A stretch of 64,000 bases of DNA from Callorhinchus milii. Its lineage: Eukaryota. A program made the position numbers and the translations under genes. Below, one piece after another: positions 1-61,744 of this stretch (positions are counted from its first letter, which is position 1; every line of letters begins with the position of its first letter). The notes below the pieces were generated by a model. That model saw only the letters and a program-made list of their open reading frames with translations. It made no database searches and was not told the origin of the DNA. The stretch lies in NCBI RefSeq assembly GCF_018977255.1, contig NW_024704742.1:108440001-108504000 (forward strand), written 5' to 3'.

Positions 1-244
1 TTCAGCACACAAAACTAAAGATTTATAAGTAAATCACAAACTGTGAATGGGCCACTGTTTCAACTCTATCCTGCATGAAGGCCACGATATAAATGCAAGT
101 TGTTTTTGCTTGTTGGTGTTTAATGGAAAGATCCTCCGACAACCATATTCTGATGCTCCTACAAATGTGGATTAGGCTTAAGATGAACCATAGGCGTGAC
201 ATGAGATCATGCCATTGTTGATATGTACAGGAATGTACATTCCC

Positions 245-645
245 CGAGGATAGAGTTCAAAATCCTCCTCCTTGGCTTCAAGGCCCTCCACGGTCTTGCT
301 CCTTCCTATCTCTGTGACATGCTGACCCCATATCAACCTGTCCTCTCCCTCCGCTCAGCAGGCTCCGGGCTGCCACGTCCACCATCGACAGTCGGGTCTT
401 CGGCCCCTCTGCCCCCACCCTTTGGAACTCCATCCTACATTCCCTTCGCCTTGCTGCCCCCCTTGCCTCCTTCAGGGCACGTCTCAAGACCCTACTCTTC
501 AACCGTGCCTTGGGCCACCTTCCTGCCCTCCACCCTCTCTGATCCCACCACCCCCCCAGCTCGGGTCCAAATCCCTATCTGTCAAGCAACTTAGGATGGC
601 CTCCTGATGTGAAAGACACGTTACAAATGTAATTTTGTATTGTAT
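245..645 (+). mobile_element. L2 3' fragment (duplicated at 5407-5807)
   Basis: RIEFKILLLGFKALHGLAPSYLCDML and L2-type tail. Confidence 0.82.
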
Positions 646-1253
646 AAGATGGGCAGTTTATGACATTACTACTCCCAAATTCAAATTAAACAAAACAAAA
701 ACATTTCCCTGAAAGCCAGTGCGTAGAGACACTGGCCAGGTCCCAGGTATGAATCCCAGGCTGTGCTGAGTTAGCTGAAATTATAATTGGACTCTGGTGA
801 AGCCTGGGTTAACCAATGCTCTCTGTGACTCAGTATCCGACACTTAATGACTAAGCTCACACCCGAACGCTTGATTAGCTGCTGAGAGTGACCCACAGCA
901 AAGAGTCAGTCCCTTCAGGAGAAAAGGCCTTCCAACCAAAATAAAAAGAGCATTATTGGATTCATTTTACCACTTTGTAAAAATCATTCATCCAATTGAA
1001 CCTTTGCCAAATGCATTGCACACACACACCACAAAGACTTATGTGGTCACACTAGTACAGGACAGTGTTTTAAATCTTCCCAATTACAGCAGAGACTAGA
1101 ATTCAGTTTGAAGTGAAACTGCATTGCAGTCTAACACTTCAATAAATGTCATTCATACAGCGGAGATTTAGGCGATACAGTATTTTGAGTCTCAGTTGCA
1201 CACAGTAGCAAAGAGCACTGGCAGACCTCAGTGAGGATTGTCTTTAAACTTAC

Positions 1254-1374
1254 CCAGTTTCTTTAAGGGGTAGGAGATATTGAAGTAGCTCTCATAAAAA
1301 TCAAGCAGCTTCACTGCTGCTTCCAGGGCGTAATGGATTTGCTCCATCTTGTGAGGAACAGCGTGTACTGATAC
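1254..1374 (-). other. LNPEP: Second, identical direct copy of LNPEP exon 5 with intact splice sites
   Basis: Same sequence as 6416-6536 at offset 5162, inside the duplicated block. Confidence 0.9.
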
Positions 1375-1982
1375 CTATTAGAAAGGTAAGGAAATCATGT
1401 CACCAGAGGTCATCAGCATTCTCTAGCCACTTTGTGAAATTGGAAAACTTTTCAAGTTTGTCAAAGGTCAGGGTTTATTAGCCCAGGGCTTCAGACTGCT
1501 CCATCCCAACACTTCTCAGTTTTCCTTTTTCACCTGCAAAATCCAGTCACTACACATTTCAATAAATTTGGTGAAGATGACGGTTCCATGTGAAAAGTGC
1601 TATATCAAATGCAAAGATTATTCTTTATTCATACTGTACTATATTCAACCCGGCACAGGCCAACCCTCAACATTGCCAGCTCAGAGCAGAGGGTGAGACC
1701 AGATCATCTGCATACTGTCAGAAATTAATACAGTAAACCTTGCATTTAATATAGCACTTTTCACATGGAACCGTCATCTTCACCAAATTTATTGAAATGT
1801 GTAGTGACTGGATTTTGCAGGTGAAAAAGGGAAAACTGAGAAGTGTTGGGATGGAGCAGTCTGAAGCCCTGGGCTAATAAACCCCTGACCTTTGACAAAC
1901 TTGAAAAGTTTTCCAATTTCACCAAAGTGGCTAGAGAATGCTGATGACCTCTGGTGACATGATTTCCTTACCTTTCTAATAG

Positions 1983-2103
1983 GTATCAGTACACGCTGTT
2001 CCTCACAAGATGGAGCAAATCCATTACGCCCTGGAAGCAGCAGTGAAGCTGCTTGATTTTTATGAGAGCTACTTCAATATCTCCTACCCCTTAAAGAAAC
2101 TGG
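1983..2103 (+). other. LNPEP: Third, inverted copy of LNPEP exon 5 (antisense to the gene)
   Basis: + strand reads taatag|GTATCAGTACACGCT...AAGAAACTGG|gtaagt. Confidence 0.92.
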
Positions 2104-2207
2104 GTAAGTTTAAAGACAATCCTCACTGAGGTCTGCCAGTGCTCTTTGCTACTGTGTGCAACTGAGACTCAAAATACTGTATCGCCTAAATCTCCGCTGT
2201 ATGAATG

Positions 2208-2640
2208 GGTTTTGAAGGTGGTGAGGGAGGGGGTGAGACGGAGGGACTGCGGGATGGAGTTCCAGTGGGTGGGTGCAGAGTGCCGGTAGGCCAGCCCGCT
2301 GATAGTGGGGTGAGCAAGGCAGGGGAACATGAAGTAGGCCGGATTCTGCTGAGCAGAGGGAGCGAACAGGGGTTAGGAGGTCGGAGAGGTAAGGGGGAGC
2401 AAGACTGTGGAGGGCTTTGAAGGTGAGGACCAGGATCTTGAAATGTATCCTCTGTGTGATGGGAAGCCAGCGGAGTTGGGCAAAGATGGGGGTGATAGGG
2501 TCGCAGAGCCTAGTGCGGGAGAGAACACGGGCTGCAGAGTTCTGGATGATCCACAGTCTGTGGAGGGAGGAGTTGGGGAAGCCGACAAGCAGTGAATTTG
2601 CATAGTCGAGCCTCGATATAATGAAGGTATAACAGGTATA
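2208..2640 (-). mobile_element. L2 fragment truncated at the inversion junction
   Basis: SRLDYANSLLVG..IQNSAARVL..ITPIFAQLRWLPITQRIHFKILVLTFKALHSLAPPYLSDLL. Confidence 0.88.
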
Positions 2641-5162
2641 AAGCAATAATAGTCAGAGGGAGGCACATTGTCATGGACTCCTTATTTGGATACTACTATA
2701 ATTTGTAGCCCAGTGGCACAGCAGCCTTCTGCTGAATGAGTTTCTTATACAGGGAAAGTGAACAGCAGGGATTTTGAGGGTCTAATGTTGTTGCTGCAGC
2801 AAGCCGACCCAGCTCAAACTGCTCAGCAGAGCAGCACATTCCTGCATTCCACACAGCCTCTGAAGCAGTCAGTTTTACTGATGACACACACAGAACCATA
2901 ACTAAACTGCACTCAAATTCATAAAATGCAGATCTTATACAAGTACAAAATCTAGATGTTTGCAAATTATTTGCAGTATTCCTTGTTCAAAAATTCCACT
3001 GGTGATGCTGCCAGTGTCTGAGGTGTGGAGGCACTGACGAAAGCCAATCAGGAGAGCCTCGGTCTTGCTGATGTTCAACTGTAGAAAGTTGGCTCTCAAT
3101 CAGAACTTGATGTCAGGGCATCAGTGGTCCTGGGGTTGAGGGTGGAGGCCGAGAGATAGAGTTGGGTGTCATTTGCGTACATGTAGAAGTTGACCCCATG
3201 TCTGCAAATGTGGGTTAGCCCGGTGTTATGCAATACATCTTGATGACACAGCTATGTTTCAGTGTCTATCAAAGACATGGAGGTTAAAGACTGGTCTTCT
3301 TATTGTGTATGACTCGTCAGTGGACAAGGAAATGGATTGACTCTGGTTCAGCAACCAGGAATGATGCTAGTGAGGCCATCAGGTTTATTCAGACAGTTCA
3401 CACAGAGGCTCCATAACTCACACAGAGGCTTCACTGTTGCCCAGTAAACTATCAGAAAGAAAATAAATAGCACAACGTTAACTACGTCACAGAACTAGTG
3501 AAAACAGAGAGGCTGGTTGTTTTCTCTTATTTCCTTAGAATCTTTACCAAGTTCACTTCACTCATCATTGCATTCTGCCTTAAATCCTCAAGCGTAGGTT
3601 TCAACTTTATATCCTTCAACCTCTTCCGAGTAAACATTTGCATCGGAAACAACTCTGTCTGCCCCAAGCAGGGGGCAAAAAGAAGGTTTCTTTCCCAAGC
3701 TGTAACCTCTCCCCTCCCCCAGCTCGTTCTCTCACTAACACGCATGTTCTGAGCACCATAAGTCTGGTGATAAATGGACAGTATTTGAAAGAGACAAGGA
3801 GTCCCTTAGAATGCTGAGGATATTGTTCATTACTCGTGACATCAATAAATTGCTCATTCTGTTTCTTTCCAGGACTGACAAAAACAAAGTTAGATTATTG
3901 GAAGCATCCTGTAATGACTTAGAAAACTACATCCTTAGAGAAGATCTGGGAACGAGCGAGGGAAGTCGTTGCGAACCCTAATTCCATTAACAGTATTAAG
4001 GTCCATTAGCATTGCCCCAGCAGCTGCCTGGTGTACTCGGGTGCATAAACAACAGGATGTGGTATAATATTTGGAAATAATATTTAAAATCACAATTTAA
4101 ACCACTGTTCCAAAGATTTTCTTCGGCATTGATATTGAGGCTTTAGAGGAACAGCATAAAAGGATAACCATATGAATATCTCCTCTCTGTCAGCTGTGCA
4201 GGTGCTGGTAGATGCAGAAAAAAAGTTTGAGTCATTGCTAAGGCTTGTTTTGGTCAGCCAGGTGTCTGACACATGTGGCAACCCATCACCATGCTTAACA
4301 GTATCCAAACCAAACTGAGATTTCCATGCATTCCACCTACACATGGAAATTCCCATGTCTGGAATGGAATGTTCATTGGTAGCTAATCGCAGAGAGTATT
4401 GGGGTGCAGATTGGCAAGTATTTTTGAATGAAAAGTATTCCGAGACACCGTCCGGCGTGAAGGGAGCTATATAAAAGCAAGTTATTATTGCTGAATGAGG
4501 TAAAATAACTTGTGTGCTGTAAGTGAGGATAGTCAGTCCTAGAACAACCCATAGTCAAATAATGCCTAAATTAACTCAGAAAAAGCCTCCAACATCTTTG
4601 CCACAAAATAGACCTCAACCCAACCCTCTCAAAGCACCACTTCCTCCACCAGATGCCCAAAGGCTGCTCAGAGCAACGCTGTCACTTGGAAATTATTTGC
4701 CTGAATTATGACTTGTTTGTGTGTATGGGGAGGAGAAGGATGTTGTTGCTTTTCCACAGGAAATTAGATCAAGAGCGCCCACATTAATGTCTTTTAGAAT
4801 TTCTACAGTTCACAGAGAGGAGTGTTTCATCTCATCTGTCTGGCCTGGATTCAGGTCCTGGTCTGACATATAAAAGGCCAATGCTCTAACTCACTGCACC
4901 ACTCACTTCCTTGCTCATAACTCTATTCAATCTCAGTACAAATTGAACAGATCTCAGCTAAGTCTGTGTGACGGCTGGTGACAATTGTAATCTGGAATTG
5001 CGGAATCTACAATTCCTCTTTTTGTGGGTTGCATTTAGTCTTGAAATAGTCCGTTCATGGGAAACGTGTTCAAGGCTCTCTTAGGTTTTAGGTTGTTTGC
5101 TGCATGCAAGAAAAAGAATATCATTGGAAAGATGGTTTAAAATGCTGAGACTTCAGTATGCA

Positions 5163-6915
5163 TTCAGCACACAAAACTAAAGATTTATAAGTAAATCACA
5201 AACTGTGAATGGGCCACTGTTTCAACTCTATCCTGCATGAAGGCCACGATATAAATGCAAGTTGTTTTTGCTTGTTGGTGTTTAATGGAAAGATCCTCCG
5301 ACAACCATATTCTGATGCTCCTACAAATGTGGATTAGGCTTAAGATGAACCATAGGCGTGACATGAGATCATGCCATTGTTGATATGTACAGGAATGTAC
5401 ATTCCCCGAGGATAGAGTTCAAAATCCTCCTCCTTGGCTTCAAGGCCCTCCACGGTCTTGCTCCTTCCTATCTCTGTGACATGCTGACCCCATATCAACC
5501 TGTCCTCTCCCTCCGCTCAGCAGGCTCCGGGCTGCCACGTCCACCATCGACAGTCGGGTCTTCGGCCCCTCTGCCCCCACCCTTTGGAACTCCATCCTAC
5601 ATTCCCTTCGCCTTGCTGCCCCCCTTGCCTCCTTCAGGGCACGTCTCAAGACCCTACTCTTCAACCGTGCCTTGGGCCACCTTCCTGCCCTCCACCCTCT
5701 CTGATCCCACCACCCCCCCAGCTCGGGTCCAAATCCCTATCTGTCAAGCAACTTAGGATGGCCTCCTGATGTGAAAGACACGTTACAAATGTAATTTTGT
5801 ATTGTATAAGATGGGCAGTTTATGACATTACTACTCCCAAATTCAAATTAAACAAAACAAAAACATTTCCCTGAAAGCCAGTGCGTAGAGACACTGGCCA
5901 GGTCCCAGGTATGAATCCCAGGCTGTGCTGAGTTAGCTGAAATTATAATTGGACTCTGGTGAAGCCTGGGTTAACCAATGCTCTCTGTGACTCAGTATCC
6001 GACACTTAATGACTAAGCTCACACCCGAACGCTTGATTAGCTGCTGAGAGTGACCCACAGCAAAGAGTCAGTCCCTTCAGGAGAAAAGGCCTTCCAACCA
6101 AAATAAAAAGAGCATTATTGGATTCATTTTACCACTTTGTAAAAATCATTCATCCAATTGAACCTTTGCCAAATGCATTGCACACACACACCACAAAGAC
6201 TTATGTGGTCACACTAGTACAGGACAGTGTTTTAAATCTTCCCAATTACAGCAGAGACTAGAATTCAGTTTGAAGTGAAACTGCATTGCAGTCTAACACT
6301 TCAATAAATGTCATTCATACAGCGGAGATTTAGGCGATACAGTATTTTGAGTCTCAGTTGCACACAGTAGCAAAGAGCACTGGCAGACCTCAGTGAGGAT
6401 TGTCTTTAAACTTACCCAGTTTCTTTAAGGGGTAGGAGATATTGAAGTAGCTCTCATAAAAATCAAGCAGCTTCACTGCTGCTTCCAGGGCGTAATGGAT
6501 TTGCTCCATCTTGTGAGGAACAGCGTGTACTGATACCTATTAGAAAGGTAAGGAAATCATGTCACCAGAGGTCATCAGCATTCTCTAGCCACTTTGTGAA
6601 ATTGGAAAACTTTTCAAGTTTGTCAAAGGTCAGGGTTTATTAGCCCAGGGCTTCAGACTGCTCCATCCCAACACTTCTCAGTTTTCCTTTTTCACCTGCA
6701 AAATCCAGTCACTACACATTTCAATAAATTTGGTGAAGATGACGGTTCCATGTGAAAAGTGCTATATCAAATGCAAAGATTATTCTTTATTCATACTGTA
6801 CTATATTCAACCCGGCACAGGCCAACCCTCAACATTGCCAGCTCAGAGCAGAGGGTGAGACCAGATCATCTGCATACTGTCAGAAATTAATACAGTAAAC
6901 CTTGCATTTAATATA
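5163..6915. repeat. Direct duplication, copy 2 (matches 1-1753)
   Basis: As above. Confidence 0.95.
6416..6536 (-). CDS. LNPEP: LNPEP exon 5
   Basis: taatag|GTA..CTG G|gtaagt, 121 nt; [40 protein letters not shown](D). Not in the ORF track; read manually. Exon 6 (GAMEN/HEXXH) was not found in the window. Confidence 0.95.
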
Positions 6916-7561
6916 ATACCTTATCACAATGTCGAGACGTTTCACAGGATATACCGTAAGGTGGTGTGACTGTGTATATTTTGATGGCGAACTCGGCAGC
7001 CAATTTGCAAGCAGCAGTATCCCACAAACAGTGTCCAGACACAAGAACAAAAACACAGAAGTTAAAATGAGGGCTGCCATCTCCACCCACTGTACTCTGT
7101 GCTGTAGCAGAGCCTCCGTTGAAGGATGTGCAATGGACGGACTCCAGCCAGGTTGAATAGGGAGAGGTTTTCCACATTGTTGGTTTTGACCATGACCCAG
7201 AACTCTAGCTCTCTGCTTCGTTAAACTTGACAAATGTACACTATAGTATCCACATTAGTCACATGACCTACAGTTACATCACAAGAAAACAAATCAAATA
7301 ATTTTCCTCTAAATTATTAAACAAAATGCCTTTCAATAACAATAATCTTTCTCCCCCTTGAAATACAGGGGAATCCTGAGATTGTACTCAGATTGCATCG
7401 TGAGGGTTGTGTTGTTTTATATATATGTATATATAATATATTGTATTACATATTATAGATAATCTTGAATTGATGGAGCTGCCGGTATGTCTGTTCTATG
7501 AGGATTTAGACAGCAGATGTTTGATCTTCAGCGATGGATACAAGGTGAGTAGAGGACTTAC

Positions 7562-7696
7562 TACAGTTCCGGATTTAGATGAACTGGTGACGTGTGTCAA
7601 TTCAGCGACAATAAAAGCCACCAGGTAAGTGCTCATCTTAACACTCTCACAAAATTCGTCTTCAAAGAGTCCGCCATTCTTCTCTACCGTCGCGTT
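7562..7696 (-). CDS. LNPEP: LNPEP exon 4
   Basis: ttccag|AAC..GTA|gtaagt, 135 nt, phase 0; NATVEKNGGLFEDEFCESVKMSTYLVAFIVAELTHVTSSSKSGTV (KMSTYLVAF motif). Confidence 0.97.
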
Positions 7697-9708: not shown

Positions 9709-9847
9709 CTTTTGCATATTGGATAACGCGACCTGGGATTGTTCCCTGATAATCTTGATCCGAAATGTAGCCTTAAACGCTGGTTCATCAAAGCATGGGA
9801 AGGCAGTCCGTGCAGCGAAGGGTTCAAACTGGGTGGCTGCCAACAAT
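9709..9847 (-). CDS. LNPEP: LNPEP exon 3
   Basis: tttacag|A..AAG|gtacct, 139 nt; [46 protein letters not shown] (M1 aminopeptidase TQFEP/FPCFDEP motif). Confidence 0.97.
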
Positions 9848-12790: not shown

Positions 12791-13634
12791 CTCTTGTTCT
12801 GGTCTTTGTCTTTATAACTACTATTATAGAATCCATAATAGGTGTTAGACAGGTTTGCTGCATAGTTCAGGTTCAGATTGTACTTTTGTCCTTTTAATAA
12901 GTTGGGAGTGACCTTGATTGCAATTTGCGCCCTTGGTATATACTCCAAAACCTTGACAGCCATCGGCTGGCCTCCCACTTCTGGAGCCAAAGTTGCTTCA
13001 GTGTAGTGGAGACCCGAGCTATGGAGAATGATGCTGTCTGTGTTTTCCTTGACTTCGAGATGTATCTCCACTGAGCCCGTGAACGTCAAGGTAGTGAGAT
13101 TGGGATGCAAAACAAGAACATAACGGACTGGTACAACAGCATTAGGCAGTCTCATCTTTGCCCAAGGAAATACCTTGCCATCGGCTGTCATGGGAAATAT
13201 GGGGGTCAAAGTTGTGTTCTTTTTATGACAGCCTTCTTTGGTGAAGGTACATTTTGGCAGAAAGTAGGCGACCATTGCTACAGAGAGTATGATCACAAAA
13301 ACAAACGCTCCCACTATTATGGTCCGAGCAGATGTTGAGCAAGATCCCCCCGATGTTTCCCTGTTATAGCCCCCTGCTAAGTTATTGCGGTGGTTGGAAC
13401 TCCTGTTCATGAAGGACATGCCCAATAATCTTGCAGAGGATTCGTAATCTTCTTCATCATCTTCAAGATCGTGTTCTCCCAGACCCCGCACGAGCAAGCG
13501 TGAGCTGTGTGGCTCGTACTCAACCTCATCTGGCTCCAGGGGATGAAGACGCGGTTCCTTGGCCAAATCGACCACGTCTGGCTCTTCCTCAAACATGCTG
13601 TTTTCAATCATGTTTCTGGGCAATTGAGCTCGCT
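12791..13634 (-). CDS. LNPEP: LNPEP exon 2: cytosolic tail, transmembrane helix, start of M1 domain I
   Basis: Acceptor ttgcag|AG, donor AG|gtaatg, 844 nt. Translation PRNMIENSMFEEEPDVVDLAKEP..SRLLVRGLGEH..ESSARLLGMSFMNRSS..TM..LPKCTFTKEGCHKKN..FPWAKMRLP..HPNLT is unmistakably IRAP. Confidence 0.98.
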
Positions 13635-15195: not shown

Positions 15196-15517
15196 GGAGT
15201 CCTGTAGCTCAGTGGTTAGAGCACTCGCTTTGCAAGCGAGAGACCTGAGTTCAATTCCAGGCAGGTCAGGGCGAAACCTTGGGCAAGTTTCCTTACTCCA
15301 CACGCCTAATAATAATCCCTCCAAAAACCAAAAACAATAATAAAATTGGTCATTTTCAATCTACGACTGTTTGTGGGACATTGCTGTGCGCAATTGGCTG
15401 CCGCGTTCGCCCACAAATATACAGTCAATTCACTTTACGGTGTGTTCTGTGCAGTGCTTCGGGACGTCCTCCCGACATGAAAAGCGCTATATCAAATGCA
15501 AGGATTATTATTATTAT
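15196..15517 (+). mobile_element. tRNA-Ala-derived SINE, short form, full length
   Basis: GGAGTCCTGTAGCTCAGTGGTTAGAGC..GTTCAATTCC head; (ATT)n tail; near-identical to other copies. Confidence 0.92.
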
Positions 15518-16729
15518 CTTAAATGTTAAGACTAAATGGTCTTACAGGCTCCGCACCCGCATCACACCAGTTCCAGTTGAATTGCAGAGGGATTAACTAG
15601 TTAGCTTGGTGGATCGATTGGTTAAGTCTGTTAGTGAATTCTTCAGCGGTTGATGAGGATTCTCCAGAAGCAAAGGGGAGGATCTCACACAGATGTTCCG
15701 AGACATTAAGATGAAAAACAATGGTGCTTTAATGGTGAAGCATTTTTTGAAACTATAAACACAGTATGATTCAGTGCTCCTGGAAACTAAACAGTAAGCA
15801 ACAGCATCGGCCCATCTTGACAATCGCCCAACATGACCAGATGCCACTCAGCCTCTGTCAAAACTAACCCGGAAAAAAGATCCGCCAATCGACTAATCGA
15901 CGGGTTCCGACTTACTGCTAGGTAAACAGAGGCGTGCGGGGTATGGAAACTAATGACACAATTGCCAAAATGTCCTGTTCTATCTTCTGAAATGTTTGTC
16001 ATTCAAACGGAACATAAATCATGTGAGTGAGCCACGGAGTGGGGGAAAAAAGAGGAATCATCACATATGTACACTCCATATTTGTCTCCATGTAAAACAA
16101 GCTGCAGCAGGAGTACGCCTGTTCCAGACATTTAACTCTTGCTGGGAGCATGCAAATATTCCCCCAAATTCTAATTTATTGGCTACTTCGCTCATTGCTG
16201 TTTACATTACAGGTGCATCACTACACCTATACCATGTTTAATAGTTGGCTAATCTGATACTTTCATATCTAATATGAAAGAAGCATCATTGAAATAGAGA
16301 AGGAAAAGACACTGGACAGAAAAAAGCCATGAGAATCTTTTACTCCAAAAAACAAATACATTCCTCATATCATGAAAAGCGATTTATCAAATGAAAGGAT
16401 AAGTAATCATTTTAAATAATAATAATAGTCCTTGCATTTGATACAGCGCCTCATCACGTCTCCAAGATGTCTCAAAGCGCTTCACAGAATATATTGTCAA
16501 GTGAACTGACTATATTTTTGTGGGCGAAACTCTGCAGCCAATTGCGCACAGCAGTGTCCTACAAGCAATTGAGGATTGAGTGATTTATTTATTTATTTAT
16601 TTTTGAAGGGAATATTATGACTGGAAAAGAGATCCACTTTTATGAACTAAATTAAAAGCTAAGAAAATTTTATCAGTACATAACTTTTATCCTAAAACCT
16701 CATATTAAACAAGAACAAATGACATTTGT

Positions 16730-17045
16730 ATAATAATAATAATCCTTGCATTTGATATAGCGCTTTTCACGTCGGGAGGACGTCCCAAAGCGCTTCACAG
16801 AACACACTGTAAAGTGAATTGATTGTATATTTGTGGGCGAATGCGGCAGCCAATTGCGCACAGCAATGTCCCATAAACAGTCGTAGATTGAAAATGACAA
16901 ATTTATTATTGTTTTTGGTTTTGGAGGGATTATTATTAGGCGTGTGGAGTAAGGAAACTTGCCCAAGGTTTCGCCCTGACCTGGAATTGAACTCAGGTCT
17001 CTCGCTTGCAAAGCGAGTGCTCTAACCACTGAGCTACAGGACTCC
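16730..17045 (-). mobile_element. tRNA-Ala-derived SINE, short form, full length
   Basis: Reverse complement of the 15196 copy; abuts an L2 tail. Confidence 0.92.
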
Positions 17046-18567: not shown

Positions 18568-19809
18568 GAATGTATATTAAAATCCAACAGATCTTGCACG
18601 GAGTAACTACAATACTTTAAAAATGCTTAGTTGGTGCAATATTCACATTTGTAAATAATAATAATCCTTGCAGTTGATATAGCACTCAAAGCGTTTTACA
18701 GGATATACTGTAAAGTGGACTGACTGTGTATTTTGTGAGCACATCATGTTAGCCAGTTGTCACTGATCCACAAACAGCCATGATCAGTGCATGATCTATT
18801 TTATTTGGGAGATTGATTGTTGGCCAAGGCATCGGGAAAAACTCACTTCTCTTTTCATATAGTGTCATGGATCTTTAACATCGACCTAAACAGGCAACTG
18901 AACTGAACTTATGTGGGAGTGGGTGGAAACTCATGTGGAATATAAACACTGGCACAGACTAGTTGGGCTGTACAATCTATACAAATCTATGTGAAGCACA
19001 ATCTTTTTTTTGTTGCAATGACTTGCCATCCAATGAAGTAGCCCTGAATGGCTACCCAGAAAAGCATGTAAGCTTGAAGTAATTCAATGAACCATTTCAT
19101 CAGAACTTTAAGCGCAGTGTCGGAAAATGTGTGGGCTGCACGCCACTCCTCGTCTCAATACCGTTTTTCCACTGTTTATCATCTCTTCAGAATGGAAAAA
19201 ATGCATCTGCAAAAGGTTAAGTGGCTGATTCCTAGTAGTTACACTGATACTGTTTAATCAGTAATCTGACTGGTTCCATTGGAATGGAAAACACTGAGTA
19301 GTTTTTAAATCCCCCCACCCTCCCCCCAGACCGTGTTCAAACAATGAGAGGATAAAATGCAACATGATGGGGAAAAAAAGCCAAATCTGTTGGAATCTTT
19401 TGTATTCCTAAAGGATAAAAGGCTTGTGGAATAAGTTACGAGTTTAGATCATTCAAATGTAGACATGTAGAGTTGATTGATATGGTAAGAAGGCAGGTGA
19501 TAGATGGAGTTCAAGACAAACTGAAAATCGACAGACTCGTAGGACCTAGTGGCTTTCTCAGTTTCTGGATATTATTTTCTCACATTAAAGTTTTAGAAAA
19601 CACCATTCTGATTTGATCCCTCCAGTTCCTCTCGTATCTACTAATCAATCTCTTCCTGGTTGTCATCCAAGTGAACCTCTTCCGTATCCTCTCTATAGCC
19701 TTGATCCTTCCTAAAATGGAGAGCCCAGAACTGGACACAATACTCAACTATGGCTCTAACCAATAATTAGCATGAAATCTTTGCTTTTATACTCTATCCA
19801 CCCATTTGT

Positions 19810-20119
19810 GGAGTCCTGTAGCTCGGTGGTTAGAGCACTCGTCTTGCAAGTGAGACACCTGGGTTCAATTCCCGGCAGGGCTAAAACCTTGGGCAAGTTT
19901 CCTTACTCCACACGTCTAATAATAATCCCTCCAAAACAACAGTAATAAATTGGTCATTTTCAATCTACGACTGTTTGTGGGACACTGCTGTGTGCAATTG
20001 GCTGCCCCGTTTCGTCCACAAATATACAGTCAATTCACTTTACAGCATATTCTGTGAAGCGCTTTGAGACGTCTAGAAGATGTGAAAAGCGCTATATCAA
20101 ATGCAAGGATTATTATTAT
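19810..20119 (+). mobile_element. tRNA-Ala-derived SINE, short form, inserted in a CR1 remnant
   Basis: Full head and tail; flanks resemble minus-strand CR1 sequence (~19610-20190). Confidence 0.9.
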
Positions 20120-30287: not shown

Positions 30288-30940
30288 CAGGACGGGACAG
30301 CGCAGGACAGGGCAGGACAGGGCAGGGCAGGACAGGGCAGGACAGGGCAGGACAGCGCAGGACAGGACAGGTCAGGACAGCGCAGGACAGGGCAGGACAG
30401 GACAGGGCAAGGCAAGGCAGGGCAGGACAGGGCAGGACAGGACAGGGCAGGGCAGGACAGGGCAGGGCAGGACAGGGCAGGGCAGGACAGGGCAGGACAG
30501 CGCAGGACAGGGCAGGACAGGGCAGGGCAGGGCAGGGCAGCGCAGGACAGGGCAGGACAGGGCAGCGCAGGACAGGGCAGGACAGGACGGGACAGCGCAG
30601 GACAGGGCAGGACAGGACAGGACGGGGCAGCGCAGGGCAGGGCAGGGCAAGGCAGAGCAGGACAGCGCAGGACAGGGCAGGACAGGGCAAGGCTGGGCAG
30701 GGCAGGGCAAGGCAGGGCAGGACGGGGCAAGGCAGGGCAGGACGGGGCAAGGCAGGGCAGGACGGGGCAAGGCAGGACAGCGCAGGACAGGGCAGGGCAA
30801 GGCAGGGCAGGACAGCGCAGGGCAGGGCAGGGCAAGGCAGGACAGCGCAGGACAAGGCAGGGCAGGACAGGACAGGACAAGGCAGGGCAGGACAGGGCAA
30901 GACAGCGCGGGGCAGGACAGGACAGGGCAGGACAGGGCAG
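30288..30940 (+). repeat. Pentamer tandem array (GGGCA/GGACA, with GCGCA and AGGCA variants) at the start of LNPEP intron 1
   Basis: ~130 units of 5 nt, almost T-free on the + strand. Confidence 0.97.
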
Positions 30941-30970
30941 TATCCCCAGCGCCCTCTGCTCTGCACTCAC

Positions 30971-30992
30971 CGCTCTGTGGATGCGGATCCAT
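30971..30992 (-). CDS. LNPEP: LNPEP (IRAP/cystinyl aminopeptidase) coding exon 1 (MDPHPQS + G)
   Basis: GGAGCC-ATG-G (good Kozak) inside a CpG island; 22 coding nt, then donor GTGAGT. The phase-1 join to exon 2 gives MDPHPQSERAQLPRNMIENS, paralleling human MEPFTNDRLQLPRNMIENS, which also has a tiny first coding exon. Confidence 0.88.
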
Positions 30993-31204
30993 GGCTCCTC
31001 CTCACTCCCTCTCCTCTCCTCTCCGCTCCCTTTTGCGGTGGTGTTTATTTACCGGTCACAGCTACAGAGAGGGGGGACAGGGGGTCCGTCTGACTGCGAG
31101 CAAAGCAAATCCCTCCCTCCGGGGCCAGAGGATCGCCGGGCAACTAAACCATAGTCCCTCCCCCACCCCCGGCACCGGGGGAGCGGAGCGGAGTCACCCT
31201 CTCA

Positions 31205-31268
31205 GCCGCCGCCGCCGCCGCCGCCGCCGCTCTCGGGCCGCACTGCCTTCCCGCCGCCGCCGCCGCCG
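31205..31268. repeat. Two (CCG/CGG)n tracts (8 and 6 units)
   Basis: gccgccgcc.. at 31205-31230 and ccgccg.. at 31251-31268. Confidence 0.95.
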
Positions 31269-31406
31269 CGCTGTTCAAAGCGAAGTCCAGACGACCATCT
31301 TAACTCTCGTCCGTTTCCGTCCGCCTCCGCTTCACCGAGAGCGGCTTTCACAGACGCGACGGGTCGATCGACGATCCGAGTGCTGCGGCTTCTCCTTCGC
31401 GTTTGA

Positions 31407-34400
31407 CTCACCAACAACTCACCCTCAGCCCCAACTCACCCCCAACCCCCAACCCCGAGCCCCACCCCCACCCCACCCCCAACCCCGAGCCCCACCCCCA
31501 CCCCCACCCCCACCCCCGAGCCCCACCCTCACCCCCAACCCCGAGCCCCACCCCACCCCCCACCCCAGCCCCAACCCCGAGCCCCACCCCCACCCTCACC
31601 CCCACCCCAACCCCACCCCCCCCCCCCACCCTCACCCCACCCCAACCCCACCCCCCCACCCCCACCCTCACCCCCAACCCCAGCCCCACCCTCACCCACC
31701 CCCAACCCCACCCCACCCCACCCCCCCCCACCCCCCCAACCCCACCCCACCCCACCCCCACCCCCAACCCCACCCCCACCCACCCTCACCCCAACCCCGA
31801 GCCCCACCCTCACCCCCAACCCGACCCCCACCCCCACCCCCCACCCCACCCCACCCCCCACCCCACCCCACCCCACCCTCACCCCCACCCCACCCCACCC
31901 CACCCCACCCCCCCCAGCCCCACCCCCACCCTCACCCCCACCCCACCCCAACCCCGAGCCCCACCCTCACCCCACCCACCCCACCCCTCACCCCCAACCC
32001 CGAGCCCCACCCCCACCCTCACCCCCACCCCCACCCCCCACCCCACCCCCACCCCACCCCACCCTCACCCCCAACCCCGAGCCCCACCCCCACCCCACCC
32101 CCAACCCCGAGCCCACCCCACCCTCACCCCAACCCCGAGCCCCACCCTCACCCCCACCCCCAACCCCGAGCCCCACCCCACCCCACCCCAACCCCGAGCC
32201 CCACCCCCACCCTCACCCCCAACCCCGAGCCCCACCCTCACCCCCAACCCCCACCCCCACCCCGAGCCCCACCCCCACCCCACCCCCAACCCCGAGCCCC
32301 ACCCCACCCCCAACCCCGAGCCCCACCCCCACCCTCACCCCAACCCCCCCCACCCCACCCCCAACCCCGAGCCCCACCCCACCCCACCCCCACCCCCCAC
32401 CCCACCCCCACCCTCACCCCCAACCCCGAGCCCCACCCCACCCTCACCCCCAACCCCGAGCCCCACCCCCAACCCCCAACCCCGAGCCCCACCCTCACCC
32501 TCACCCCCAACCCCCAACCCCGAGCCCCACCCCCACCCCACCCCCAACCCCGAGCCCCACCCCACCCTCACCCCCAACCCGAGCCCCACCCTCACCCCAA
32601 CCCCCAACCCCGAGCCCCACCCCCACCCTCACCCCCAACCCCGAGCCCCACCCTCACCCCAACCCCGAGCCCCACCCCCACCCTCACCCCCAACCCCGAG
32701 CCCCACCCCAACCCCCAACCCCGAGCCCCACCCCACCCTCACCCCAACCCCCAACCCCGAGCCCCACCCCCACCCCACCCCCAACCCCGAGCCCCACCCC
32801 CACCCTCACCCCCAACCCCGAGCCCCACCCTCACCCCCAACCCCAACCCCGAGCCCCACCCCCACCCTCACCCCCAACCCCGAGCCCCACCCTCACCCCA
32901 ACCCCAACCCCGAGCCCCACCTCACCCTCACCCCACCCACACCCTCACCCCCAACCAACCCACCCCACCCAACTCACCCCCAACCCCACCCTCACCCCAA
33001 CCCCACCCACACTCACCCCCACCCACCCTCACCCCAACCAACTCACCCCAGCCCCAACTCACCCCAACCCCACCCTCACCCCCAACCCCACCCTCACACT
33101 CACCCAACCCACAGCCCTCACCCTCACACTCAGCCCCACACCCCAACCAACTCACCCACAGCCCCAACTCACCCCCAACCCCGAGCCCCACCCCCACCCG
33201 AGCCCCAAACAACTCACCCACAGCCCCAACTCACCCCAACCCCGAGCCCCACCCCCACCCGAGCCCCAAACAACTCACCCACAGCCCACTCACCCCCACC
33301 CCACCCCCAACCCGAGCCTCACCCCCCCAACCCCGAGCCCCACCCCACCCCAACCCGAGCCTCACCCTCACCCCAACCCGAGCCACACCCTCACCCCCAA
33401 CCCCCTCACCCCCAACCCCGAGCCTCACCCTCACCCCCAACCCCGAGCCACACCCTCACCCCCAACCCCGAGCCTCACCCTCACCCCCAACCCCGAGCCT
33501 CACCCTCACCCCCAACCAACTCACCCACAGCCCCAACTCACCCCCACACTCACTCACACACTCACCCCCACCCCCACCCCCAACCAACTCACCCCAACCC
33601 CACCCCCAACCAACTCACCCCCAACCCCGAGCCCCACCCCTCACCCCCAACCCCACCCTCACACTCACCCCACCCACACCCTCACCCCCAAACAACTCAC
33701 CCACACCCTCACCCCCAAACAACTCACCCACAGCCCCAACTCACCCACAGCCCCAACTCACCCCCACCCCACCCACCACAGCCCCACCCCACCCCCAACC
33801 CCGAGCCCCACACTCACCGCCACCCACAGCCCCAACTCACCCCCACCCCCAACCCCGAGCCCCACACTCACCCCCACCCTCAGCCCCACCCCCACCCTCA
33901 CCCCCAACCAACTCACCCCCAACCCCACCCACACCCCCAACTCACCCCCAACCCCCAGCCCTCACCCACAGCCCCGAGCCCAGCCCCACCCTCACCCCCA
34001 ACCCTCACCAACCAACTCACCCCCAACCCTCACCCCCGAGCCCCAACCCCACCCATAGCCCCACCCACAGCCCACCCATAGCCCCCAACCCCCACCCCCA
34101 GTCCCACCCTCACCCCCAACCCAGAGCCCCAACTCACCCTCACCCCAACCCCGAGCCCAGCCCCCACCCACAGCCCACCCATAGCCCCCAACCCTCACCC
34201 ATAGCCCCCACCCACAGCCCCACCCCCAGCCCCACCCTCACCCCACCCATAGCCCCCACCCTCACCCCCAACTCTCACCCACCCCAACCCACCCCCAAAT
34301 CACCCACTCAACCCCACCCCAACCCCACCCTCACCCCAGCCCCACCCCCAACCCACCCACTCAACCCCACCCCCAACCCACCCACTCAACACCACCCCAA

Positions 34401-35012
34401 CCCCCAGCCCCACCCCAACTCACCCACTCAACCCCACCCCAACCCACCCACTCAACCCCACCCTCACCCCCAGCCCCACCCCAACTCACCCACTCAACCC
34501 CACCCCAACCCACCCACTCAACCCCACCCCCAACCCACCCACTCAACCCCACCCCCCAGCCCCACCCCCAACTCACCCACTCAACCCCACCCCCAACCCA
34601 CCCACTCAACCCCACCCCACCCTCACCCCCAGCCCCACCCCCAACTCACCCACTCAACCCCACCCCCAACCCCCAGCCCCACCCCCAACTCACCCACTCA
34701 ACCCAACCCCACCCCCAACTCACCCACTCAACCCAACCCCCAGCCCAGCCCCCAACCCACACCCAACTCCAAACCCCACCCCCAGCCCACCCCCCCAGCC
34801 AACCCCCCACCCACAGCCCCACCCCATCCCCACCACCAGCCCCACCCCCAACTCACCCACTCAACCCCACCCCCAAACCCACCCTCACCCCCAGCCCAAC
34901 CCCAGCCCCACCCCAGCCCAGCCCCCAACCCCCAGCCCACCCCCAACCCCCAGCTCACCCCCCACCACACCCCACCCCCAGCCGCAGCCCACCCCCCAGC
35001 CGCAACCCACCC
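31407..35012 (+). repeat. 3.6-kb C-rich degenerate minisatellite (CCCCAA/CCCCGA/CCCTCA/CCCCA units)
   Basis: Recurring CCCCAACCCCGAGCCCCACCCCCACCCTCA-type units; extreme C/A skew. Confidence 0.97.
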
Positions 35013-45465: not shown

Positions 45466-46795
45466 ACAATAACAACAACAAAATTACATTTGTATAGCGC
45501 CTTTCAAGTCGGGGGGATGTCCCAAGTGCTGGACAGACAGAGTTTCGGACCTGAGCTGGAAGTTGGGGTCAGGAATGTGGAGGGCAAAGGGGGAAGCAGG
45601 GAGATCGAAAGCACGGTCGAAGAGGAGAGGCTTGAAATGGGTGTTGAAGGAGACAAGGGAGGGGCAGTGGCGGAGGGTCTGTGGGATGGAGTTCCAGAGT
45701 GTGGGGGCAGAATGGCAGAAGGCCCATCTACCAATAGTGGGGCTAGTGAGGCGGGGGACGTAAAGCAGGCCAGAGACTGCTGAGTGGAAGGAGCGAGCAG
45801 GATGCTAGGAGGTTAGGAGGTCGCAAAGGTAGGGGGAAGCAAGACCATGGAGGGCTTTGAAGGTGAGGACCAGGATCTTGAACTGTATCCTCTGTGTAAT
45901 CGGAAGCCACTGGAGATGGGCAAGAATGGGGGTGATAAGAGTCATGGAGCCTAGTGCGGGAGAGGACACGGACTGCAGAGTTCTGGATGGCCTGTAGCCT
46001 ATGGAGGGAAGAGTTGGGGAGACTGACAAGTATAGTCGAGCCTCAATGTAATAAAAGCATGTATGAGGGTTTTGGCGGCCTGCAGTGTGAGACAGCGTCA
46101 GAGCCGGGCGATGTTGCGGAGGTGGGGAAAGGCAGAGCGGGTCATGGAGCAGATGTGGGATAGAAAGGATAGTTGAAGGTCAAACAAGACCCCAAGATTC
46201 CGGACTGGCTTAGTGAGGTGGAGTGTGCAACCATGGATGGTGAGACTGTCAGAGCCTGAGGTGAGGAGGCGCTGACGGGAGCCAATCAGGAGAGCCTCGG
46301 TCTTGTTGTTATTCAACTGAAGAAAGTTAGCTCTCATCCAGAAATTGATGTCTGACAGACATTTTGTCAGCACAGCAGTGGTCCTGGAGTCAAGGGTGGA
46401 GGCAGAGAGATAGAGTTGGGTGTCATCAGCATACATGTGAAAATTGACCCCATGTCTGTGGATGATGTCACCAAGAGGGAGCATATAGATATTGAAGAGG
46501 AGGGGACCAAGGACAGAGCCCTAAGGAACGCCGCACGAAACGGTCCAGGGGCTAGAGCAGAAACCATTTGAGGAGATGACGTGCAGGCGGTGTGAGAGGT
46601 ACGATCTGAACCAGTCAAGGACAGCTCTGTGGAGGTTGAGGTGAAAGGAGAGACGGTGGATGAGGGTGTCGAAAGCAGCAGAGAGGTCGAGTAGGAGGAG
46701 GAGGCAAAGGGAGCCCTGGTCGCAGATGGACAGAATGTCATTCGTAACTCAGGGCTGTTTCTGTGATGTGGGCGGCACGGAAACCCGATTGGATG
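45466..46795 (-). mobile_element. L2-clade LINE, 3' part (RT C-terminus, disrupted)
   Basis: ORF 46098-46484 with [11 protein letters not shown] and [15 protein letters not shown], plus VRNLGVLFD; (GTT)n tail. Confidence 0.92.
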
Positions 46796-55294: not shown

Positions 55295-55447
55295 TTACTG
55301 TGGGATAGTAATATCCAATAGCCACGATCTGAGGACATCCAGATTCCGCTCCAGCCACCTAATGTTTTTCTGAATGGTTTCCAGGGCAAGCTGGGTACAC
55401 CTCAGCTGGGAGCTCTGCTCCTTGATAGATTCAAAGAACATTTTCAC
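55295..55447 (-). CDS. ERAP2: ERAP2-like final coding exon with stop
   Basis: tttcag|GTG..CAG TAA; VKMFFESIKEQSSQLRCTQLALETIQKNIRWLERNLDVLRSWLLDITIPQ*. ERAP2 rather than ERAP1 is called from diagnostic residues plus same-strand position upstream of LNPEP. Confidence 0.9.
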   Translation of the reverse strand: MKMFFESIKEQSSQLRCTQLALETIQKNIRWLERNLDVLRSWLLDITIPQ

Positions 55448-57006
55448 CTGAAACAGATGTATGCAGGTAAGGGTTTGGTTTACAGGATATACTTTACAAA
55501 TATAGCCTGGATATAATTAAACAATGTGCTTTGTAATGTGCTTTGCAGTCATAGGCTCTGGGTGTCTACCTTTTTGGTCATAGGTCTAACTCAGGCTAGA
55601 AAAGAGGAAATACAAGTTAAGTGGATGACTTTGTGTTTGCCCCTAATGCTTGTTGGTTTGATGAACCCTTTGTTGCTTTCACTGTGGGCTGGGATGTACT
55701 ATGGAAATGAAAGAGGTGCCAGCTTGTATCTACAACCCTGTGTTATGAATTACTAAGTTAATAAGTCCAGGATTACTGTGTGGAGTTCATACACCTAAAC
55801 ACAGTAATAGATTTTCCTGTGTGTCAGACACTTGTCTGGCCAAAAATGAACAGAGTAAATGCTTACAAGAAAGTTCTTAAAGGTTAAATGTTTCATTTTA
55901 CTCAGATAGTCTTCCCTCCTTAGAAGGCGCTGTAATGACAGGTTCAAAAAGAGGCTTTTCGGCCCATTGTGTCTGTGCTAGATCTCTGAACAAGCTATCC
56001 AGTAGGTCCCACTGCCCGGCCCTCTCCCCATACTCTTTTATATTTTTATATTTCAAATGTTTAGGGTGACGCTGAAAATTCCATGACACTATTTGAATAG
56101 ATTAGGGAATTTACTTTGGTGTCCTGGCCAACAATGATAAAAAATTGGTCATTCACACATGGCTATTTATAGGGCATTGCTATTTAAATGCAAATTGTTG
56201 TACTAATAGTGGGACTGAATGAGCAACAACAACCAGAGAAGGAATCAGCAGCATTGCTATGGTGCTTAATGGAATGCAACACTTAACATCTGAGGAACAG
56301 CTGAATAAGAAGTGCTGGCAAAGCTCTTCACTTCAGTAATTATCCTGTTATAGAGATCAGTTCTGATTCTGCCACTACAATTATATCTGTGATCACCACT
56401 CTAGGTAAACATAATACAATTGACTGACAGCTGAGAGGTAAGTGAGATGATTGTCGCAATCATTTTCAATCAACAGTCAAATATTCAGGCAGTTATGATG
56501 TGATTGTTGCACTCATAATAACTGAAGGCTCTATGGTTTAAATGTGTTGTACCTACAAGTAGTGGATGTCAGTGCTGGCAAATAGAACATTGTTTTTAGA
56601 TTGATTTGGATGAAGAAGGTCTATCAGCTCATTCAAACTCATCCCTCCAGTGACTTCATTGACCTGAGGCAAAACCGCTCTGAAGATGAGAGACAAGTGT
56701 GCTAACCCACAGTCATACTCAATCTCCTCACCCCAGTGTCAAAAGTCTGTGGTATATATAATACAATCACTTTAAGATATTAACCTCAATTTTGCAGTAT
56801 TTTTTGATTTAGAGGTACGAGTGAGCAACTGTTTCTGGTGGCAGGTCCGTCTCAGTGACCTGAGGGAAACCCCACTCTGAAAATAATCGGAGTCAACAAC
56901 TACCGGATTTCTTCATTAAAAATTCCCATCAAGAGATACCAGAAAATTATTATGGAGAGTGTTGTTTGTCTTTCATCATGTTTAAACAATAACTAAAGCC
57001 ACTAAC

Positions 57007-57088
57007 CTCCTCCAATTCTTCCTTAGATGAAAAGTGAGATGTCGTTCCAACGATAAGCCATCTGATAGTGAAGGAGCCAAGCTCAAAT
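57007..57088 (-). CDS. ERAP2: ERAP2-like penultimate exon
   Basis: ccacag|A..GAG|gttagt, 82 nt; FELGSFTIRWLIVGTTSHFSSKEELEE. Confidence 0.9.
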
Positions 57089-57402
57089 CTGTGGTGAGTA
57101 AGGACACTGTTAAACACCCTTCATACTGGAGATCACACTAGAGATCTATTATGGGAAACAATGAAGGATTCTGTCCAACGCACAAGATCATGAAAAGCCA
57201 CTCAGCTCAACAGATCATATCACAAGAGTATTTCAGTCTAGTTTCACTATGTGGAGATGAACACAGGTAGGTCAACCAATGCTCCTTCACTGAGCTGTAA
57301 CTGCTCCCATTGCAATTGTTCTCCACCTGACATTGAAACATTCAGTGTTGGTGTGTATAGAACCATAGAATTATAGCACAGAAGGAGGCCATTCGACCTA
57401 TT

Positions 57403-57672
57403 TGTGTGTGTGTCTGTAGGGGCTGTCTATGTGTGTGTGTAGGGGCTGTCTGTGTGGGTGGTAGGGGCTGTCTATGTGTGTGTGTGTGTAGGGTCTATCA
57501 ATGTGTGTGTCTGTGTGTGTGTGTAGTGGATGCCAATTCATGTGTGTATGGGCTGTTTATGTTTGTTTGTGTGTGTCTATATGTGCTTGTCTAGGTGTGT
57601 GTGTCTATGTGTGTGTGTATGTCTATGTATGTGTGGAGGGGCTGTCTATGTGTGTGTGTGTCTATGTGTGTG
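57403..57672. repeat. Imperfect (TG)n/GTGTAGGGGCTGTCTAT low-complexity repeat
   Basis: Directly visible; explains three spurious Cys/Val ORFs. Confidence 0.93.
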
Positions 57673-57862
57673 TTCTTTTCACACTTACATAAGTGTGATG
57701 AAAAAGAACTGAACACAGTACTCTAGCTGAGGTCTAACCAGTGTTTTATAAATTAAAATGTATTTCCACATTGTATTGCAATACATGTCATAAATGTCAC
57801 TGCCTGTGCTGCTCGAATACTACTGAAGGACACAAGGTCTGAATGATTAAAAAGGTACTGAC

Positions 57863-58003
57863 TTCTCAATCAGTTTGTTCCAATTCCTCTTCACAAAATT
57901 CCAGGCAAGGAGATGTCCGACTGGGTTTCTGCTCACTGCAGCAACAACATGGTCTAGATCCTGCAACTTGATGACATTCCCTTCCATACCAATCTCCAAC
58001 AAT
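57863..58003 (-). CDS. ERAP2: ERAP2-like exon
   Basis: ccccag|A..AA|gtcagt, 141 nt; LLEIGMEGNVIKLQDLDHVVAAVSRNPVGHLLAWNFVKRNWNKLIEK. Confidence 0.92.
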
Positions 58004-58811
58004 CTGGGGATATCAGAACAGAGAAGAACTGAGCATTAAGCACAAAATAAGCCTACGCCAGCCACAGGATGTGCTTCACACACAAGTTTGAACAGAAGGC
58101 CACGCAAGTCACACATTCCTTTGCTGGTACAGCTTCCCTGTTGTTCTGCTATTATATTTTTTTCTGAAGGAGAATACATTACTTTGTCCTATGTACAGAG
58201 TAATTAGCTTGTTCAGAAACCTAGTTATAAAATTCTACTTGATCGAAGGAAATCTGTAGCTTTTTGAAAGAACTGTTTTACAAACTTGGAACACATTCCG
58301 AAACAATGGAGAAATCTATGAAAATAAAAACAAGCTGTTAATTGCCTTTTAATCACATTCCAACACAATGAAATGAAACCTAACTGACATGAATAGCATC
58401 TAGTACCTTTTGGCTCCTCAATTTTTACAACAACAAAATTACATTTATAGAGCGCCTTTCACGTCGAGAGGACGTCCCAGGGCGCTCGACAGTCAGGGGT
58501 CAGGACCCGAGCATGGGGGAGGGGTGGTATAGGGGTGAGGGAAGGCAGAAAGGTGGGAGGGTGACCAAAGGCATGATCAAAGAGGAGGGACTGGCCTTGA
58601 AGGAGGCAAGGGAGGAAGTGAGGCGAAGGCACTGTGGGATGGAGTTCCAGAGTGTGGGGGGCAGAGAGGCTGAAAGCCCGGCCACCGATGATAGGGCGGG
58701 TCGGGCGGAAGACATGGAGCAGGCCGGAGCCCGCTGAACAGAAGGTGCGGGCAGGTTCGTAGGGAGTCAGCAGGTCAGAGAGATAGGTTTAATGTAAAAT
58801 AAACTCCTTAC

Positions 58812-58973
58812 CCTGACAGTTTCTCTGGATCCCTGGTGGCCGCCAAAGCATTAAGAATCTTAATCTTTTCAGCACCTGACAAGGACTGGATGTACTTCTT
58901 CAGGAGGTATTCCCATCCATCAGCACTCTGGGCTCCCACAGAATGCACAATCTCGAGAACATCTGTCGGCAAA
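58812..58973 (-). CDS. ERAP2: ERAP2-like exon
   Basis: tcacag|T..GG|gtaagg, 162 nt; LPTDVLEIVHSVGAQSADGWEYLLKKYIQSLSGAEKIKILNALAATRDPEKLS. Confidence 0.92.
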
Positions 58974-59596
58974 CTGTGATACCAAACAACAGCAAGTTGA
59001 ATAAATCGGGGTGTTAGTTTTCCACGTTAATAGTTTTCACTGCATACGGTGCTGTATGTATTTATATACTTATGGATGGATGTATATACGCTTGGGTGGA
59101 TGTATATAGGTACTTATGTAAGTACATATTTGAAGGTGAGTGAATAAGTGAACAGGCACGTTTGTGTTCATTAGTAAGATGTTCAGACTGGTAAATAAGC
59201 CATTACTTGGTGACATATTAATCAATAAAAGTACAACAGGCATGCATAAGTGGTTTTATTACCAAAACGTGCACTGCATGTAAGCTTTTGTACAAAGCAG
59301 AATTTCTTCTATAACAACTTGAACTTTGTACAGCCTTACACTCAGGATGAATACTTTTTTTTGGCAGCCGGAAACTTGCTTTTTGGTTTTGTGGAAATGC
59401 ATCACCATGCTTAAGAGTATCCAAACCAAACTGAGAATTGCATGCATCCCAACTACACATGGAAATTCCAGGAATAGATTGTTGGAATGGAATGTGCACT
59501 CTCACCCTGGATGGACGCATCCTGCTTACCTAATTACATATAGTATTAGGTACAGGTTGACATGAGCCAACGGCTTGGGGACCCCAGAGTGTGCAT

Positions 59597-59832
59597 TATA
59601 ATATAATAATAATTCTTGCATTTGATATAGCACTTTTCACGTCTTCTAGACGTCCCAAAGTGCTTCACAGAATATACTGTAAAGTGAATTGACTGTATAT
59701 TTGTGGGCGAACGCGGCAGCCAATTGCGCACAGCAGTGTCCCACAAACAGTCATGGATTGAAAATGACCAATTTATTATTGTTTTGTTTTTTGGAGGGAT
59801 TATTATTGGGCGTGTGGAGTAAGGAAACTTGC
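59597..59832 (-). mobile_element. 5'-truncated short-form SINE
   Basis: Body and tail only. Confidence 0.88.
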
Positions 59833-60161
59833 TGAATGATACAATGATGCAGCTAGAAGCTGATAGTATAGTACAATACTATAATGTTGGATAAGAATCA
59901 TCTCAAAACCTTGCAGTATGTATGTCAGAGCTGTGTCTGATATACTTCTGGGGGTTTAAGAAATTGGCCACCAGGTGTCTCAGTGGTTCAGTATAGAGAC
60001 TACTGCACACTGACACCCAGTGGTAGGAAATGGAATCACACCCACAACTGACACTGCAGTCTCCCATCTCAATCAAATGGAAGTCAGGACTTCCTCACAG
60101 GAAGGAATAGTAATGTAGTAACAGTGAGAAGCTGCTGCTGCTGCCCACTCCTCACATTTGT

Positions 60162-60490
60162 GGAGTCCTGTAGCTCAGTGGTTAGAGCATTCGCTTTGCA
60201 AGTGAGAGACCTGAGTTCAATTCCAGGCAGAGGGCGAAACCTTGGGCAAGTTTCCTTACTCCACACACCTAATAATAATCCCTCCAAAACCAAAAACAAT
60301 AATAAATTGGTCATTTTCAATCTACAACTGTTTGTGGGACATTGCTGTGCGCAATTGGCTGCCGCGTTCGCCCACAAATATACAGTCAATTCACTTTACA
60401 GTATATTCTGTGAAGCACTTTGGGACGTCCTCCCGACGTGAAAAGCGCTATATCAAATGCAAGGATTATTATTATTATTATCATTATTAT
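60162..60490 (+). mobile_element. tRNA-Ala-derived SINE, short form, full length
   Basis: Same head, body and tail. Confidence 0.92.
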
Positions 60491-61580: not shown

Positions 61581-61744
61581 ATAAGACATCTCAGCCCCTC
61601 ATGAGATTATTGGCTTGTGATCACTCTCAAACAGCCTTTGTTGTCTATATAATATATCATCGATTACAAACTGAAGCCCAACCTGGTGATAGGGTGATAC
61701 TGGCAGCTGTCTGCATTTCACCACAAAGGAGAAGCTGAACTAAC

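Follow-up and report, generated by a model that had tools for sequence, protein, structure and literature searches.

In duplication-inverted triplication-duplication rearrangements (DUP-TRP/INV-DUP), described at loci such as MECP2 and PLP1, an inverted third copy lies between two direct copies (PMC11293582, PMC10766186, PMC6902434), as it does in the sequence analysed here. This is a stretch of 64,000 nucleotides (nt) from Callorhinchus milii (contig NW_024704742.1, positions 108,440,001 to 108,504,000), called the window below, in whose assembled form exon 5 of the leucyl/cystinyl aminopeptidase gene LNPEP is present three times. In the published cases, as here, the first junction falls within a pair of inverted repeats; their second junction carries little or no homology, as junction 2 here may. 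The arrangement in the window works like DUP-TRP/INV-DUP at a much smaller scale: in the published cohort the repeats measure 0.9-140 kb and are separated by 21-318 kb (PMC11293582), as against 24-nt tails of short interspersed elements (SINEs) lying 125 nt apart, and Alu pairs of about 85% identity have also been reported at such rearrangements. Unlike those of the human cohort, the structure measures about 9 kb at most, has a triplicated part of 456 bp and is known from assembled sequence alone. Of the DUP-TRP/INV-DUP label given in the first-pass annotation, the embedded inverted copy and the placing of junction 1 in inverted repeats have held, and the class name goes no further than this likeness in working. 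Membership requires just two junctions, both carried in cis by real molecules, and a copy profile of 1-2-3-2-1, which needs the segment at 2208-5162 to be repeated on the left, beyond the window edge; if that left repeat is shorter than 2208-5162, the structure is a three-junction templated insertion instead.

In the anatomy of its junctions the nearest real case is an inverted duplication of CHM exon 12 (PMC8756506), which shares a fold-back between short microhomologies separated by a few hundred bases, a second switch on 4 bp, an antisense exon copy beside the exon and a predicted pre-mRNA hairpin. Synthesis in CHM returns to its start, with no direct duplication and with the sole sense exon masked, and exon skipping was observed in the patients. 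Unlike in CHM, the return here is 4.1 kb back and leaves two sense copies and one antisense copy of exon 5. Inverted triplications formed by origin-dependent inverted-repeat amplification (PMC10766186) are distinguished by close short inverted repeats at both junctions and by a replication origin inside the amplified segment; here such a repeat is found at junction 1 only (loop of 125 nt), junction 2 spans 4.1 kb, and an origin by this route would need a secondary rearrangement. Rearrangements mediated by transposable elements (PMC9675761) likewise have oppositely oriented SINEs at an inversion junction, and small Alu-mediated inversions often show complex breakpoints; unlike in those cases, only one junction here joins two SINEs, both of them short decayed remnants. 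False duplications in assemblies (PMC9516828) also present neighbouring copies without differences, separated by a stretch that contains errors and lacks support from other reads. They differ in that the window has no gap of undetermined bases (N) at this place, and the stretch between its copies folds at an inverted repeat of natural origin, not at an adapter or the end of a read.

Arrangement of the assembled sequence

Comparison of the window with itself placed a first direct copy at 1-1753, identical to 5163-6915 with 0 mismatches, the first mismatch falling at 1754. The reverse complement of 1150-1605 (equivalent to 6312-6767) is found at 1749-2207, where it contains three 1-nt insertions and no substitutions. 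If the native copy is divided into a (5163-6311), b (6312-6767) and c (6768-6915), with U for 2208-5162 and Y for the sequence after 6915, the order along the window is a b c b' U a b c Y, with the inverted third copy b' embedded between the two direct copies (Table 1). The perfect 1753-bp copy is far beyond chance. Self-BLAST of the window found no second long near-identical repeat outside the satellite at 30-35 kb, and the best other matches were SINE copies of at most 323 bp and up to 96% identity. The sole N in the window is at 48088, with none between 1 and 48087, so that neither junction contains one; the N itself sits in unique sequence without duplicated flanks. What is confirmed is the assembled sequence only, not its presence in an animal.

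A minus-strand frame at 12790-13668 matches Callorhinchus milii leucyl/cystinyl aminopeptidase at 100% identity across 97% of the frame, and this protein match identifies the gene as LNPEP of this species. The repeated exon is 121 nt long and its AG/GT splice sites are intact in all three copies. The first-pass annotation had reported both the direct and the inverted repeat, as well as an LNPEP exon in triplicate, and was right in each; the number 5 is our assumption from the human exon sizes of 139, 132 and 121, exon 1 not having been located in the window.

Table 1. Positions of the rearranged segments, the junctions, the repeat remnants and the LNPEP exons in the window
Feature	Position	Strand	Remarks
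First direct copy (a 1-1149, b 1150-1605, c 1606-1753)	1..1753		Left end outside window; 0 mismatches to 5163-6915
LNPEP exon 5, extra sense copy	1254..1374	-	121 nt, AG/GT intact
Tail A, decayed SINE 3' remnant at b/c border, first copy	1529..1625	+	BLAST-significant only at 1588-1625
Junction 1, between end of SINE tail B and reverse of tail A	1730..1753		14 bp with one mismatch; 19/24 overall
Inverted copy of b (reverse complement of 6312-6767)	1749..2207	+	1-nt insertions at 1831, 1885, 1923
LNPEP exon 5, inverted (antisense) copy	1983..2103	+	Identical to the other copies
Junction 2 (2207/2208)	2204..2211		No N gap; 2204-2207 match 4 bases upstream in closest paralog (45636-45639)
L2-like repeat remnant, cut at 2208	2208..2625	-	Closest paralog from 45640, 78% identical
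Segment U, single within window	2208..5162		Two-junction model predicts a repeat left of window
Second direct copy, native a-b-c position	5163..6915		Runs on into 6916 onward
LNPEP exon 5, native position	6416..6536	-	
Tail A, decayed SINE 3' remnant, native copy	6691..6787	+	14-mer at 6763-6776
Tail B, decayed SINE 3' remnant, tail-to-tail with A	6896..7032	-	14-mer at 6902-6915
LNPEP exon 4	7565..7696	-	132 nt
LNPEP exon 3	9709..9847	-	139 nt
LNPEP exon 2	12791..13634	-	5' end approximate

Junction 1 lies in the remains of a SINE family of about 315 bp with a tRNA-like head (judged by eye), of which the window holds 6 heads and, within 2208-64000, 17 tail 14-mers. Tails A and B are decayed 3' remnants of this family, about 95 and 140 bp long, and face each other with an inverted 14-bp pair (6763-6776 and 6902-6915; 13 of 14 bases alike, loop of 125 nt) whose pairing extends to 19 of 24 matching bases. 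This is the one-mismatch homology between tail-to-tail SINE ends to which the switch had been assigned beforehand, and the assignment proved accurate. At the mismatch, position 1748, the base of the distal tail is kept, and the switch therefore took place within 1749-1753. When the native single strand 6755-6915 is folded, the predicted structure of minimum free energy is the exact stem of junction 1; this, together with the retained mismatch on the primer side, indicates a fold-back of a 3' end at 6911-6915, from which synthesis was primed backward. Junction 1 was probably formed chemically on a molecule, whether in the cell or in the library, and a 14-bp imperfect overlap would be too short for an assembler to have made the join. 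The pair is the closest of 6 oppositely oriented SINE tail pairs within 2 kb of each other, and substrates for such template switches are common in the window: the other five are at 15488-16760, 18668-20107 and 59616-61361, and three have perfect 14-mers.

At junction 2 the inverted arm ends at the equivalent of 6312 and joins 2208, 4.1 kb apart, inside a truncated repeat. The six paralogs of this repeat that could be aligned all extend further left past the cut, and to this extent the earlier statement that the junction cuts into an L2 remnant stands; the label L2 itself is presumptive. Judged from its closest paralog, junction 2 may carry 4 nt of microhomology. A 4-base match of this kind would be expected at 0.8% of arbitrary cuts, and an equal gapped score was found at 2.0% of 1588 positions. 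The three insertions in the arm, at 1831 (GG to GGG), 1885 (CCC to CCCC) and 1923 (C to CC), are all within 170 nt of junction 1.

Template switching, assembly artefact or functional arrangement

We consider the chances slightly better than even that the sequenced animal carries the structure as a rare or private allele, produced by two template switches during DNA synthesis. A nascent plus strand ending in SINE tail B (about 6915) would have looped round to pair with tail A, 125 nt upstream, and been extended backward through b; the substrate for this step is present in the sequence, the event itself being our reconstruction. After about 455 nt the end would have switched, on microhomology of at most 4 nt, into the L2-like remnant at 2208, landing 4.1 kb further back, and U-a-b-c would have been copied again. 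The product would combine a direct duplication with a third exon 5 in inverted orientation, as a mutational scar and not a functional element. The insertions could be either consensus errors in an arm supported only by the reads of this haplotype, or slips of a low-fidelity polymerase after the fold. A real allele is favoured because one molecule with two switches explains both gap-free junctions, whereas a fold-back in the library explains junction 1 only. The CHM allele, which was confirmed by Sanger sequencing, combines an 8-bp fold-back with a 4-bp microhomology (PMC8756506), and 14 of 24 human DUP-TRP/INV-DUP cases have 1-9 bp at junction 2 (PMC11293582). The gap-free assembly of a 3.6-kb satellite of 73% GC at 31.4-35.0 kb suggests that long reads lie behind the window.

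Only a little less than an even chance is given to an assembly artefact, that is, a false exon gain. A library fragment would have primed itself at the inverted SINE tails and given a fold-back read, whose tail, as a poorly supported contig end, was butted against an overlapping contig starting at 2208, the gap being lost in gap filling or polishing. (These weights, and that of the third explanation below, are judgements and were not computed.) Such errors have precedents: false duplications with gains of false exons, gap-fill joins without support and palindromic chimeras in PacBio sequence have all been documented (PMC9516828), libraries are known to suffer from intramolecular fold-back synthesis where microhomology is long (PMC10167630), and one survey counts fold-back inversions among PacBio artefacts (PMC13345201). 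Another survey found virtually no fold-back reads in PacBio HiFi data (PMC12338684). False duplications are, moreover, mostly separated by gaps (PMC9516828), and neither junction here has an N. The artefact also requires three independent accidents, in that the spur was kept, an overlap of 4.7 kb was kept and the gap was lost, and it leaves the 4-nt match at junction 2 to chance at 0.8-2%. This match occurs in one of six paralogs (78% identical) and not in the other five, and was tested post hoc, which in turn counts against an allele.

The weak points of a template-switch allele are the insertions in the arm and the lack of read support for either junction. Each of the three insertions lengthens a G/C run of 1-3, whereas eight A/T runs of 4-5 are intact, a pattern unlike ordinary slippage. 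They are pure run extensions without substitutions, and they are concentrated: compared with the contigs of sequencing run X5 (see below), three of four indels fall in the arm, which makes up 11.5% of the compared length (P = 0.006), and in the comparison with the two direct copies their confinement to the arm gives P = 0.0015. It is possible that the three insertions near the fold could be the footprint of synthesis resembling that of DNA polymerase theta (Pol theta), whose additions (3.3e-3) exceed its substitutions (PMC2441791). At the rates of this enzyme, three additions and no other error have a probability of 0.01-0.02, and its processivity is only about 75 nt (PMC2441791). Raw PacBio errors are mostly insertions (8.0 of 12.9%; PMC7671305), and the arm insertions resemble sequencing error, yet they are no proof of artefact, because a real arm present on one haplotype would be covered by fewer reads and because hairpins disturb long-read sequencing (10.64898/2026.07.13.738322). 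Short reads would be expected to prefer the two perfect copies over the arm. De novo indels near junctions have also been described for replicative repair (PMC6902434).

Contigs assembled from other sequencing runs bear on all the explanations. Eight runs contain part of the window, and four of them (X5-X8) contain 0.73-0.80 of its words, a share too coarse for the roughly 150 words of the junctions and insertions. Contigs were compared directly over 1606-6311, which covers both junctions and each segment once, for X5, X6, X1 and X2, with X3, X4, X7 and X8 left out. Assembled contigs show presence and not absence, they drop rare variants, and a junction contig would be short; the runs may come from animals other than the source of the window. 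In both deep runs compared, X5 and X6, one unbroken contig of 996 nt follows 5784-6311 and then, on the opposite strand, 2207 to about 1740, which is the normal single-copy join of a and b. The three arm insertions are absent from the X5 and X6 contigs, as private variants would also be. Where contigs of X5, X6 and X1 cover c, they go on into dissimilar sequence and not into the inverted arm, and neither junction is crossed by any contig among the 32 pieces listed (73,951 others are unlisted). All of this counts against a template-switch allele and for an artefact. On the other side, the X6 contig over a and b has a depth of 11.8 against 4.2-8.2 in the six listed neighbours, a weak contrast given that the contig is unbranched and contig depth is not a copy number. 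Further contigs over 1829 (X5, X6) and 1922 (X5), with depths of about 9 and 12, lack the deletion; as the main contig has no break, they are tentatively taken for short paralog hits. Neither X1 nor X2 is covered over 1920-2076, both runs being too shallow for this to have meaning.

The same contigs bear on the perfect identity of the direct copies, which the first-pass annotation had offered as a reason for caution. It is weaker evidence for an artefact than was supposed, because the stretch is nearly invariant between animals: 5784-6311 shows 0 differences to the window in X5 and X6, and 4348-5467 and 5784-6767 are almost invariant in these runs. An extra base at 5245, seemingly private to both direct copies and considered as a shared consensus error, was rejected; the X5 and X6 contigs cross the position ungapped, and its appearance stems from a high-depth repeat paralog.

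A fixed or common arrangement of functional value to the species, for instance an RNA-structure switch for exon 5, is highly improbable. The arm and the adjacent copy form a predicted RNA duplex of 456 bp (-935.7 kcal/mol) that covers exon 5 and both of its splice sites. The arrangement was nevertheless unseen in both deep runs compared, its copies have not diverged, and all 12 LNPEP protein models of the cluster have a single exon 5, so that a fixed or functional role is already largely refuted. The protein models also speak for an artefact, if weakly, as annotation would skip or hide a copy that shifts the frame. It is a fair conclusion that the species is not fixed for the rearrangement, which can be no more than a rare allele and has no read support so far. 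The original choice between a very recent SINE-mediated event and an artefact was sound in its SINE-tail switch and its caution. The locus holds at most a rare mutational scar belonging to a known class, and it is about as likely to hold an assembly error.

Possible consequences for LNPEP

If exon 5 were read twice, the frame would shift and a stop would follow after 24 codons, before the GAMEN and HEXXH motifs. It is conceivable, though we think it unlikely, that the allele is real and neutralises itself: the antisense arm would pair with one sense copy at a time, most easily with the downstream copy about 150 nt away, and would leave one exon 5 free. By analogy with CHM the mRNA may then be normal. 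Were this true, 24-nt SINE tails would have primed an inverted triplication in miniature, and its inverted part would undo the harm done by the accompanying duplication. A real allele would in any case show at base resolution, and on a very small scale, a class of mutation known chiefly from loci of human disease, and would test in nature whether an exon duplication can be rescued by an antisense copy of the exon. An artefact would mark an error in the LNPEP intron of this assembly and would illustrate that self-primed fold-backs can mimic such rearrangements. Whether real or artefact, the rearrangement does not describe the species as a whole.

Gene context and further observations

Motifs of exon 6 were looked for across the window and none was found, and 2208-6415 is for this reason assigned to intron 5. 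Within it, X5 and X6 differ from the window at 3175-4273 by several substitutions and one indel that they have in common, a patch of a divergent haplotype. A 332-nt contig of X2 (depth 3.6) matches 4846-5152 and ends in 25 unaligned letters; the contigs of X5 and X6 continue through 5152/5153. A search of the literature on LNPEP, exon duplication and Callorhinchus found no paper with the term LNPEP, most subscription journals lying outside its coverage.

Towards the 5' end of the gene, the annotated start of protein model P0121 maps to 30992 on the minus strand. It falls in a CpG-rich stretch with GCC repeats (about 30950-31420) that may contain the LNPEP promoter and exon 1. This stretch is flanked by two GC-rich degenerate arrays, one with a 5-bp unit at 30288-30940 and a CCCCAA-like array at 31421-35012, the latter being the gap-free 3.6-kb satellite of 73% GC. 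In protein model P0123 the end of exon 4 is swapped for a short peptide that is also present in a frame of intron 4 (about 6950-6970, minus strand), probably an artefact of annotation. Upstream of LNPEP and in the same orientation are the 3' exons of a second M1 aminopeptidase gene (55319-63922, minus strand). These exons are 38-50% identical to LNPEP itself, and two fused fish models match them more closely in their first half; from its position the gene may be ERAP2-like.

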